Notes under the pieces: model-generated
Told to the model about the DNA's origin: nothing
Databases searched by the model: none
The model's input: only the letters and a program-made list of their open reading frames with translations
Origin: a virus
Strand: one strand, 5' to 3'
Virus record (IMG/VR): IMGVR_UViG_3300042731_008053
Length of the DNA: 14,121 nt
In this document: positions 8,309-9,880 of the stretch, piece by piece
Layout of the letters: every line of letters starts with the position of its first letter
Position numbering within the stretch: the first letter of the stretch is position 1
Position numbers and translations under genes: made by a program

Positions 8309-8554
8309 CTACTGGCGCTTCCGTACAGCAATAGCTGTCGAGATGCTAATGACAGCGACGATGCCGGTAACGGCGCCCAGACCGATGATGAGCGGCATGA
8401 CCTGCGCTTTCGCGCCCGCAGCGGCCTGGGTACGAATCTCAGCCATCAAAGAGTCGTAGATGCCTCCCGCGCCCGCGCCCAGGTATTTGACCAAGTCTTC
8501 TTGGAGCCCTCCAAGTGGGGCCTGAGACGCTCGAATGCGTGTAAAGGCAAGCAT
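8309..8554 (-). CDS. Small tail-anchored membrane protein (81 aa), holin-like in size and topology.
   Basis: C-terminal TM PLIIGLGAVTGIVAVISISTAIAV then RKRQ. The start overlaps the upstream stop as TGATG at 8552-8556. Confidence 0.6.
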   Translation of the reverse strand: MLAFTRIRASQAPLGGLQEDLVKYLGAGAGGIYDSLMAEIRTQAAAGAKAQVMPLIIGLGAVTGIVAVISISTAIAVRKRQ

Positions 8555-9843
8555 CAGACAGTCTTCGGTTTACGAACGTAGTAGTACACGCCACCACCAG
8601 CGGCTGCAGCCGCAAACAACATTAGTGCAATGAACACGGGCCGTTTGTACCAAACGGGTAGGAGCGCAGCCTCGTAGTCAGGCAACGGGACTTCTGTCCC
8701 TGATGTCGGTTTGACGCCGCTTGTCACGACCTCGGTGTAAGGCCGGCGCGTATCGTCAATGGCAGGAACAAGACCAAACGGGCCAGAAAGCTGACCCGTA
8801 TAGATCGAACCTTGAGGGATTGCGATACGGTACCGTTGGATGCGTCCATCCAACGCAAAGATGGTGCCTGCGGGCAACGTAGCACCACTGGTCGAGCAGA
8901 AAAAGTTCTGCAACATCTGACCGATCAGCGTCCCGCCTTCGTGAGTTGGGTTGGCTTTCAAGGCATCGAGCTTGGATTTGGTGACACCCGCTTGCTGCGC
9001 CTGAGCTGGCACAGCGCTAGCACCTCCAGTTAGATACGCCAACACTGCTTGACCGACCGGCTTGGCGGCAGTGCAGGCAAGCGCAGAAAAGATTTTAGCG
9101 AACCAATCGAAGAGCGTTTCGAGGCCGTCAACAATAGCGGCAGCGATCTTCGTAATGAAGTTCCAAACAGACTCAACGAAGTTCACTCCACGTTCACGAA
9201 TGTAGACCTTGATTGTGTAGCTGGGGAGCCACTCAACGAATAGGCCCCACGAGTCGCCCGTTGTCGGGTGATCGAATTTTACAATTGGCCGTTGACCGGT
9301 AAGCATGTACTCGTCGATGGGTCGGTCGAATTTCCAACCGTTGATCTCAGTACGAAACCGATCAGAGTGGACAACGCTCTTTCCACTGCCGGGATAATGT
9401 TCCAACAAGAACTTGTCGCTTTTGGCTAAGTCTTCGGCAGAGGCTTTTCGTGCACAAATGTCTTCGTAGTTGCTGTATGTGCGGTGGATGTTGCGCTCAC
9501 AGGTAGCGGCGGACGCGCGCGCTTGTGCATTCATCAGCCACAAAATGTACGGGTCTTGTCCGATGTTGGTGTTACCAAGCTCGACTTGACGGCGCTCAAA
9601 CCCAGCATGGGTAAACAGCTGCATATGACCACGACCCGAGGTCGTGGGTGTCACTGGAAACCCGAAGGGCCCAACCTGAAGAACCGGTTGTGGTTCACCC
9701 GTGGGTCCGCGAAACAGTAATGGCGCCCGCACCATCGGTCCCGGCGCAGTCGGTTTGCTCGCACGAATAATGTCTGCAGGCGAGGCGCCGAGAGAAGCAA
9801 CGAGCATGGTTAGAAGGTACATCAAAGAGATCGTTGCTCGCAA
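8554..9843 (-). CDS. Type I membrane protein with an N-terminal signal peptide, a ~380-aa ectodomain and a C-terminal TM anchor. Candidate envelope / spike / receptor-binding protein.
   Basis: N-terminal MRATISLMYLLTMLVASLGASPA (TTG start at 9843; in-frame ATGs at 9822 and 9807). C-terminal PVFIALMLFAAAAAGGGVYYYV then RKPKTV. Four Cys in the ectodomain. Confidence 0.7.
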   Translation of the reverse strand: MRATISLMYLLTMLVASLGASPADIIRASKPTAPGPMVRAPLLFRGPTGEPQPVLQVGPFGFPVTPTTSGRGHMQLFTHAGFERRQVELGNTNIGQDPYILWLMNAQARASAATCERNIHRTYSNYEDICARKASAEDLAKSDKFLLEHYPGSGKSVVHSDRFRTEINGWKFDRPIDEYMLTGQRPIVKFDHPTTGDSWGLFVEWLPSYTIKVYIRERGVNFVESVWNFITKIAAAIVDGLETLFDWFAKIFSALACTAAKPVGQAVLAYLTGGASAVPAQAQQAGVTKSKLDALKANPTHEGGTLIGQMLQNFFCSTSGATLPAGTIFALDGRIQRYRIAIPQGSIYTGQLSGPFGLVPAIDDTRRPYTEVVTSGVKPTSGTEVPLPDYEAALLPVWYKRPVFIALMLFAAAAAGGGVYYYVRKPKTV

Positions 9844-9850
9844 GGCTGTG

Positions 9851-9880
9851 GTATAACAGCACCAAGAAGGTCCGATTCAA
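9851..9880 (-). promoter_or_regulatory. Candidate sigma70-like promoter for the 8554..9843 gene.
   Basis: On the minus strand, TTGAAT (9880..9875) is followed by an 18-nt spacer and TTATAC (9856..9851), within a 60-bp AT-richer divergent intergenic region. The predicted TSS is near the TTG start at 9843. Confidence 0.3.

Follow-up and report, generated by a model that had tools for sequence, protein, structure and literature searches.

Does the reverse-strand open reading frame (ORF) at 8554..9843 of IMG/VR virus record IMGVR_UViG_3300042731_008053 encode an exported viral spike, as its outline seems to promise? The record is a stretch of 14,121 nucleotides (nt), here called the window, and the product of the ORF, here called the target, was described in an earlier note, made from the letters alone, as the only protein in the window with both a cleavable-looking N-terminal signal and a C-terminal transmembrane (TM) anchor followed by a basic tail. 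A non-ATG start, its own promoter and a spike- or fusion-like role were proposed as well. That reading would have implied a bacterial virus with an envelope and a glycoprotein of the classical type, and the evidence does not bear it out. Comparison with relatives indicates that the target belongs to an undescribed, modular, signal-less and C-terminally anchored protein family, which has neither database annotation nor a known fold. The family is carried by uncharacterised virus-like elements, some of them integrated, of Gemmatimonadota and other environmental (soil, freshwater) bacteria, and this lineage of elements is widespread. The explanation that we favour, tentatively and a little short of an even call, is that the target would be a membrane protein with a structural role in a lipid-bearing particle, one that forms inside the cell and is freed by lysis.

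Start codon and signal-like N-terminus

Searched exhaustively with HMMER, a set of 1.84 billion representatives yielded 33 matches at E<=1e-3, which define the family (relatives P0002-P0033). The target is certainly coding, given these matches and the best independent relative among them, P0002 (431 amino acids (aa)), at 42% identity and E=1.3e-58; a second search, made with the profile of the family, brought up no more than 2 proteins, both known already. The 429-aa ORF of the earlier note is present when counted from TTG 9843, with ATG 9822 and ATG 9807 as further in-frame starts, and TTG 9843 is the earliest possible start because of an in-frame TGA at 9879-9877. The non-ATG start itself gained no support from the family N-termini, the gene callers or the ribosome-binding sites. 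N-termini of relatives (MLAVTQLGALPGGY, MLTATLVGLGATPGGY, MLTATYISGPLGALP and MLVAHRLGAAPRS among others) follow the pattern ML[TA]A..LGA.PGG, which lines up with ATG 9807 (MLVASLGASPA) and not with the earlier starts, and M1, L2, L6, G7, A8 and P10 are invariant in the alignment of the four closest sequences. The independent gene callers of the Joint Genome Institute (JGI) and Logan both picked ATG 9822. No Shine-Dalgarno sequence lies 5' of TTG 9843, ATG 9822 or ATG 9807, and several neighbouring genes have one. The most likely start, on comparison with the family, is ATG 9807, which divides the region as follows.

8554..9807, reverse strand (-): most likely coding sequence of the target, 417 aa (MLVASLGASPA...), from ATG 9807 to TGA 8556-8554, placed by the N-termini of relatives
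9808..9843, reverse strand (-): 5' extension of the maximal ORF (TTG 9843/ATG 9822), coding doubtful, yielding the signal-like MRATISLMYLLT
9844..9903, no strand: divergent intergenic region between the target and 9904..10272(+), holding TTGAAT and TTATAC

The apparent signal peptide depends on the two upstream starts. From TTG 9843 the product would have Arg2, a 16-residue hydrophobic core and a plausible S-P-A/D cleavage site, and from ATG 9822 a 10-residue hydrophobic stretch is retained; the 12-residue Kyte-Doolittle maximum is 2.22 from TTG 9843, 1.85 from ATG 9822 and 1.28 from ATG 9807. Signal-like N-termini occur in none of the 32 relatives (12-residue hydropathy maxima <=1.8, mostly <1.3). 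The closest relative, at locus L001, cannot carry a signal peptide, because in-frame stops at 333 and 339 (stops 18 codons 5' of its ATG) leave VRFAHR as the sole possible extension 5' of its ATG. Hence the cleavable Sec signal is impossible in the closest relative and in the target hangs on starts that lack support; it is probably an artefact of the maximal-ORF start, since it is absent in the 32 relatives and the family N-terminus fits ATG 9807. Translation of a lineage-specific hydrophobic extension upstream of 9807 seems to us unlikely, though with a real minority chance, and we rate a functional Sec signal lower than that. The case illustrates how choosing the maximal-ORF start can manufacture a signal peptide.

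Nor is the target the only protein of its kind in the window, as had been supposed. At least eight ORFs end in a single C-terminal TM helix with a basic tail (1261..2220, 2254..2577, 2574..2846, 2866..3750, 7714..8091, 8309..8554, the target and 9904..10272), and the one clear Sec-type signal of the window, of lipoprotein type (N-terminus MRAVVVLLLVAAC), belongs to the small ORF 10317..10568(+).

The two hexamers lie where the earlier note had placed them, with TTGAAT at 9880-9875, an 18-nt spacer, TTATAC at 9856-9851 and then 7 nt to TTG 9843. Their reading as a promoter has no support, given that they agree with the sigma-70 consensus at 4/6 and 2/6 positions and that a scan of 8200..10400 returned 0 promoter-like sites versus 0.8 expected by chance. 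Some promoter should nevertheless sit in 9844..9903, because the target and 9904..10272 diverge. A separate feature of the window is the palindrome GATCGC-N4-GCGATC, a candidate operator or modification site, with 11 copies at <=2 mismatches versus 1.25 expected (0/200 shuffles reach 11). It is found at 2236-2251, 3769-3784, 3940-3955, 7479-7494, 11022-11037 and 12847-12862, plus 5 weaker sites; the perfect and 1-mismatch copies are mostly intergenic or in 5' regions, and none lies 5' of the target.

Anatomy, modules and class of the anchored proteins

The C-terminal anchor with its basic tail stands as first described. The helix VFIALMLFAAAAAGGGVYY has a 19-residue Kyte-Doolittle mean of 1.84 and is followed by the tail YVRKPKTV, and both elements are kept in 30/33 family sequences, the remainder being fragments or weaker. 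Family mean net charge is +3.0 (up to +9) in the C-tail versus +0.7 in the 12 residues before the TM helix. Conservation in the HMMER matches is highest over residues 165-345 (429 numbering), and P186, W199, C257 and C316 (429 numbering) are invariant in the 17 aligned members; the cysteines, kept in 17/17, are C245 (9073-9075) and C304 in 417 numbering. For the 417-aa form, an AlphaFold2 model that drew on the 33-sequence alignment reached a mean predicted local distance difference test score (pLDDT) of 74.8 and a predicted template modelling score of 0.46; from the single sequence of the target, pLDDT was 39 and the result unusable. In 417 numbering, the model has residues 1-28 disordered, strands and helices at 42-137, a confident beta domain at 151-205, a small beta unit at 316-363 and the TM helix at 390-411. 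Mapped onto the window, the parts are these.

9775..9807, reverse strand (-): N-terminal 'ML tag' MLVASLGASPA, common to other C-anchored proteins; model pLDDT <50
9193..9357, reverse strand (-): conserved beta domain, residues 151-205 (417 numbering), G..PI.K..HP.TG..WG.Y; pLDDT about 90
9073..9171, reverse strand (-): amphipathic helix SVWNFITKIAAAIVDGLETLFDWFAKIFSALAC, ending at the first invariant Cys; low model confidence in its first half
8896..9072, reverse strand (-): helical region between the invariant Cys pair; pLDDT about 90
8557..8883, reverse strand (-): C-terminal module, comprising beta unit LPAGTIFALDGRIQRYRIAIPQGS, linker, PVWYKRP interface motif, TM helix and tail
8581..8637, reverse strand (-): TM helix, within the C-terminal module
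8557..8580, reverse strand (-): basic tail, within the C-terminal module

The target thus has the central beta motif, the amphipathic helix and the two invariant cysteines that mark the family, together with the C-terminal TM helix and basic tail; the N-terminal ML..(L)GA.P is matched only when translation starts at ATG 9807. In 17/17 aligned members, the hydrophobic moment of the amphipathic helix is about 0.5. Where a fusion peptide or loop, or heptad-repeat machinery, is sought in the target, this conserved helix is what comes into consideration, and its amphipathicity does not by itself tie it to fusion peptides. The codons of this helix, at LETLFDW, are also where public contigs break: three independent contigs end inside the target, a 42-kb JGI contig at 9103, a 24-kb JGI contig at 9116 and a Logan contig at 9115. 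That all three fall within 9103..9116 suggests a genuine fork in the assembly graph, caused for instance by an inversion, a recombination junction or variation between strains.

Searches with the target gave no significant match in Pfam, PHROGs, NCBIfam or PADLOC; a weak PHROG tape-measure match on the amphipathic helix 9073..9171 was non-significant (E=0.013). Foldseek of the predicted structure against BFVD and PDB found no match at E<=1e-3, and so none to a spike or fusion fold as had been proposed, and neither the family profile against PDB sequences nor a word-indexed protein search with the target returned a match. A resemblance of the ectodomain to a periplasmic enzyme family, which would have spoken against a spike, was likewise not seen, because no known family or fold matches the target. 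In a set of 50,697 phage records, tblastn of the target and of a 236-aa core protein of the element found no match, nor did megablast of the whole window, which has no isolate relative there. Relatives of the target sought in viral contigs numbered none, and a homologue was not detected in loci L011-L013. Literature searched on a Gemmatimonadota jelly-roll virus and on phage proteins with tail anchors yielded nothing specific.

The target is one of a class of similarly built proteins. Among 166 called genes of eight related loci (L002, L008-L010, L014-L017), 41 (about 25%) encode C-terminally anchored proteins, and a signal-like N-terminus is present in 1/41. The class therefore does not use Sec signals, as 40 of its 41 members are without one. 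An ML start (MLTAT, MLSAT or similar, often followed by G.LG) is found in 17 of the 41 C-anchored proteins (41%) versus 9 of the 125 others (7%), with a Fisher p=1.6e-6 that overstates the case because the genes are not independent. Some sister C-anchored proteins have Pro/Thr (PT)-rich linkers and Cys-bounded repeats. In the window, such a neighbour is the ML-tagged, C-anchored product of 9904..10272(+), with 3 x CITPGNPPGC (Cys-bounded loops) and poly-Thr/Pro linkers, which are features of surface-exposed proteins.

Parts of the target recur outside the family. Its C-terminal module, with the pattern P.G.I.a.D.....WRIA.PkG, linker, PWYK.P, TM helix and basic tail, is also present in window ORF 2866..3750 (hhalign 95%, E=3.5e-8), in L014 1021-2028 and in L019 210-1289 (98.5%), and it is missing from several family members. 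The central beta domain and helix recur in L028 1827-2936 (hhalign 96.9%). On profile comparison, modules are thus shown to be exchanged between the target family and other genes of the element.

The element and its neighbouring genes

The window covers part of a larger genome, as contigs of JGI sample 3300035128 show: one of 42,066 bp agrees with window 9103..1 at full identity, another of 24,294 bp does so with window 9116..14121, and each runs on past its end of the window. A small tailless phage with a corticovirus- or tectivirus-like 14-kb genome is therefore rejected, as the IMG/VR relatives are also 39-221 kb. A haloarchaeal pleolipovirus is rejected as well, the target protein not being acidic and the host signal being Gemmatimonadota.

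The most conserved gene of the element is the 236-aa, beta-rich gene at 12889..13599(+), which has >470 homologous clusters on contigs of up to 232 kb; the listed relatives of its product are 56-91% identical, and it has no Pfam, PHROG or PDB match. The 16 contigs with core genes in IMG/VR, which classes them as viral, span 39-221 kb, many of them 77-95 kb, and all 16 carry a transglutaminase-like gene, a Gly-rich 262-aa gene and the 236-aa gene; most also have a two-TM gene and a helix-turn-helix (HTH) gene. The transglutaminase-like gene is furthermore present in most other related loci, and undetected in L002, L010, L011 and L013.

An integrated copy, including the 236-aa gene, is carried by the closed chromosome of a Gemmatimonadota metagenome-assembled genome (CP070815.1, L011), where ordinary enzyme genes flank one side. 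At its left border (~6340), enolase-superfamily, amidohydrolase and M19 dipeptidase genes abut the two-TM gene of the element, and no tRNA or integrase was recognised near this border. Neither terminal repeats nor tRNA genes were found in the window or the loci. Genes of the element encode an excisionase-type HTH protein, a dual-specificity phosphatase, a Mom-like protein, HNH and methylase domains, inteins, an M23 peptidase, DUF5131 and pectate-lyase-like beta-helix proteins. Terminase, portal and HK97-type capsid had no Pfam match among the look-ups and scans run on these loci.

Neighbours in the window that bear on the target are the following.

8309..8554, reverse strand (-): 81-aa C-anchored partner, whose start overlaps the target stop (TGATG)
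2866..3750, reverse strand (-): paralogous carrier of the C-terminal module, divergent neighbour of the transglutaminase-like gene
3851..5554, forward strand (+): transglutaminase-like (papain-fold) protein, N-terminally anchored; Pfam Transglut_core and Intein_splicing, both below curated cut-offs

In L002-L009 a homologue of the 81-aa partner (E=8e-16) follows the target homologue, either directly or at the second position after it. Target-type proteins in related loci are usually next to the transglutaminase-like gene and usually divergent from it, a place that 2866..3750 takes in the window; homologues of the target itself adjoin it divergently in L001 and L008 and on the same strand in L007. 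The transglutaminase-like protein of the window is split by a 324-aa intein with a LAGLIDADG homing endonuclease (4352..5323(+)), right before the catalytic-Cys motif (GGD/CDDHS). In homologues the intein is missing in L014, L008 and L015 and apparently present in L031.

Several other genes are of interest in their own right. The dual-specificity phosphatase lies at 102..578(-) (DSPc E=7e-9, phrog_10650), and its homologue in a related element (L015 10554-11385) adjoins a thioredoxin-like gene. The gene at ~13815..14121(+) runs off the window end and corresponds to L017 4700-6991, a 763-aa Mom-like DNA-modification protein (PF25680 E=1e-17, phrog_1384) in which a weak LAGLIDADG_3 match at residues 326-354 suggests a second intein without confirming it. 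The forward-strand ORFs 6275..6784, 6788..7126 and 7039..7659 are tandem paralogues with a common C-terminal two-TM unit (HGYKRND...FPVITP..ALAQGFGKPK) that is kept in related elements. The pectate-lyase-like beta-helix proteins (L022 18792-20708, L032 14714-17656, L002 6683-8867) are probably the receptor-binding depolymerases of the group, and are better receptor-binding candidates than the target protein; the L022 protein and three shorter L002 paralogues have a common N-terminus like M(A/T)(D/K)NF...L..SG...P.(A/S)GGGV.

Proposed placement of the target and comparison with known systems

If the target is indeed a structural protein of a lipid-bearing particle, the particle membrane would hold its C-terminal helix, the basic tail would lie inside with the genome, and the 390-aa N-terminal part would face out, to a protein shell or to the surroundings. 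Proteins that otherwise have nothing in common may dock to one partner through the N-terminal 'ML...G.LG' tag. A Sec signal would be superfluous in this topology, since a vesicle formed inside the cell turns its cytoplasmic face outward. Candidate roles would be a link between membrane and shell, or membrane remodelling at entry through the amphipathic helix. The charge bias, the two invariant cysteines and the sister proteins with PT-rich linkers or Cys loops fit a domain displayed across the membrane from the tail. Phages known to contain a membrane take up their lipids within the cell and exit by lysis (PMC6356626). Should these elements form lipid-bearing particles, this gene set would be the place to seek their membrane assembly and entry machinery.

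Several points weigh against this placement. The element is known from its genes, and particle formation and lipid content are suppositions. Insertion of the tail anchor from the cytoplasm would be energetically awkward, because the positive-inside rule keeps the basic tail on the side of insertion, and the conserved cysteine pairs suggest an oxidising compartment. The 236-aa core protein, without a Pfam, PHROG or PDB match, may be the capsid, which is a guess. No packaging ATPase was recognised, and the replication protein likewise escaped recognition. Finally, the protein of the window might have a lineage-specific signal from TTG 9843 or ATG 9822.

The signal from these starts is central to the classical alternative, in which the target would be a type I envelope glycoprotein with an exported ectodomain, a C-terminal anchor and a spike or fusion role. 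The TTG start, with Arg2, its hydrophobic core and the S-P-A/D site, would suit such a protein, and the ATG 9822 of the gene callers keeps part of the hydrophobic stretch; the positive-inside bias would place the tail in the cytoplasm and the N-terminal domain outside, the cysteines are invariant, and the conserved amphipathic helix could act on membranes. We nevertheless give it only a slight chance, given that no relative has a signal-like N-terminus and the closest cannot have one, that the family aligns with ATG 9807, that the TTG is without a Shine-Dalgarno sequence, that no viral protein in BFVD or PDB resembles the fold, and that nearly the whole C-anchored class of the related elements does without signals. 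An accessory role in the host membrane, outside any particle, is also improbable in our judgement. Here the target would serve superinfection exclusion, lysis (as a holin- or spanin-like accessory) or surface modification of the lysogen, which would suit a single TM helix in a gene within a block of small membrane-protein genes, the breaks of the assembly inside the gene (compatible with population variation) and the fast divergence of the family (25-42% identity versus 70-91% for the 236-aa core protein), as for conflict genes. However, the target is larger and more elaborate than known holins and spanins, with three folded domains and the invariant Cys pair, very divergent elements keep it beside the transglutaminase-like gene, and N- and C-terminal tags on a quarter of the element genes are too many for accessory functions.

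The co-conserved enzyme suggests another explanation, namely that [PF][WF]YK.P, the TM helix and the basic cluster form a sorting signal, and that the transglutaminase-like enzyme processes or cross-links the target, possibly through the conserved Lys of the motif, or cleaves the ML...G.LG tag. The presence of this gene in all 16 IMG/VR loci, often adjacent, the recurrence of the motif-TM-basic C-terminus in many genes of the element and weak sub-threshold CTERM/LAETG sorting-domain matches in sister proteins would speak for it. Yet known sorting signals need an N-terminal Sec signal, which is absent here, the target has no NCBIfam match and its sister proteins score 14-18 bits versus cut-offs of 29-30, an aromatic residue plus Lys next to a TM helix is also the ordinary membrane-interface belt, and cleavage is only supposed; sortase and exosortase had no Pfam match among the look-ups and scans run on these loci. 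We put the chances of such a substrate role as low. A bolder proposal joins both ends of the protein into a two-ended code, with N-terminal 'ML-x-A-T...G-x-L-G' and C-terminal '[PF][WF]YK-TM-basic' directing Sec-independent placement in a particle membrane, where the transglutaminase-like enzyme may process or cross-link the proteins. About a quarter of the proteins of the element would then be marked, with the target as the largest cargo. Taken as a whole this proposal is unlikely; if true, it would mean that these viruses encode a protein-sorting mechanism of a new type and form a new lineage of bacterial viruses with membranes.

Membrane proteins of phages assembled inside the cell include P6, P3 and P9 of phi6, P16 of PRD1 and P3 and P6 of PM2. 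As the target would be under the favoured placement, these are small-to-medium virion proteins with a TM helix in a lipid layer. Their phages leave by lysis, without budding at the cell membrane (PMC6356626), a mode of assembly that would account for an anchored 'ectodomain' lacking a Sec signal. The target has no sequence or fold similarity to them, and it belongs to a much larger double-stranded DNA element in which no double-jelly-roll capsid or packaging ATPase was recognised. Type I glycoproteins and spikes (pleolipovirus VP4/VP5; class I-III fusion proteins) resemble the target in that a large N-terminal domain with conserved cysteines, and with an internal segment of hydrophobic or amphipathic character, is followed by a single C-terminal TM helix and a basic tail that is short. 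The target family has no conserved signal or fold match, and the target is one of many anchored proteins and not a lone spike.

The C-terminal sorting systems LPXTG/sortase, PEP-CTERM/exosortase and GlyGly-CTERM/rhombosortase share the three-part C-terminus of motif, Gly-rich TM helix and basic cluster, but the target lacks an N-terminal signal and a model above cut-off, and the sole co-conserved candidate enzyme is transglutaminase-like. Bacterial tail-anchored proteins, like the target, have no signal and a single TM helix within about 30 residues of the C-terminus. The target family differs from these in its strongly basic tails (mean +3, up to +9) and in the conserved cysteine pairs of its N-terminal domain; charge bias and cysteine pairs together argue against an N-terminal domain that stays permanently in the cytosol.

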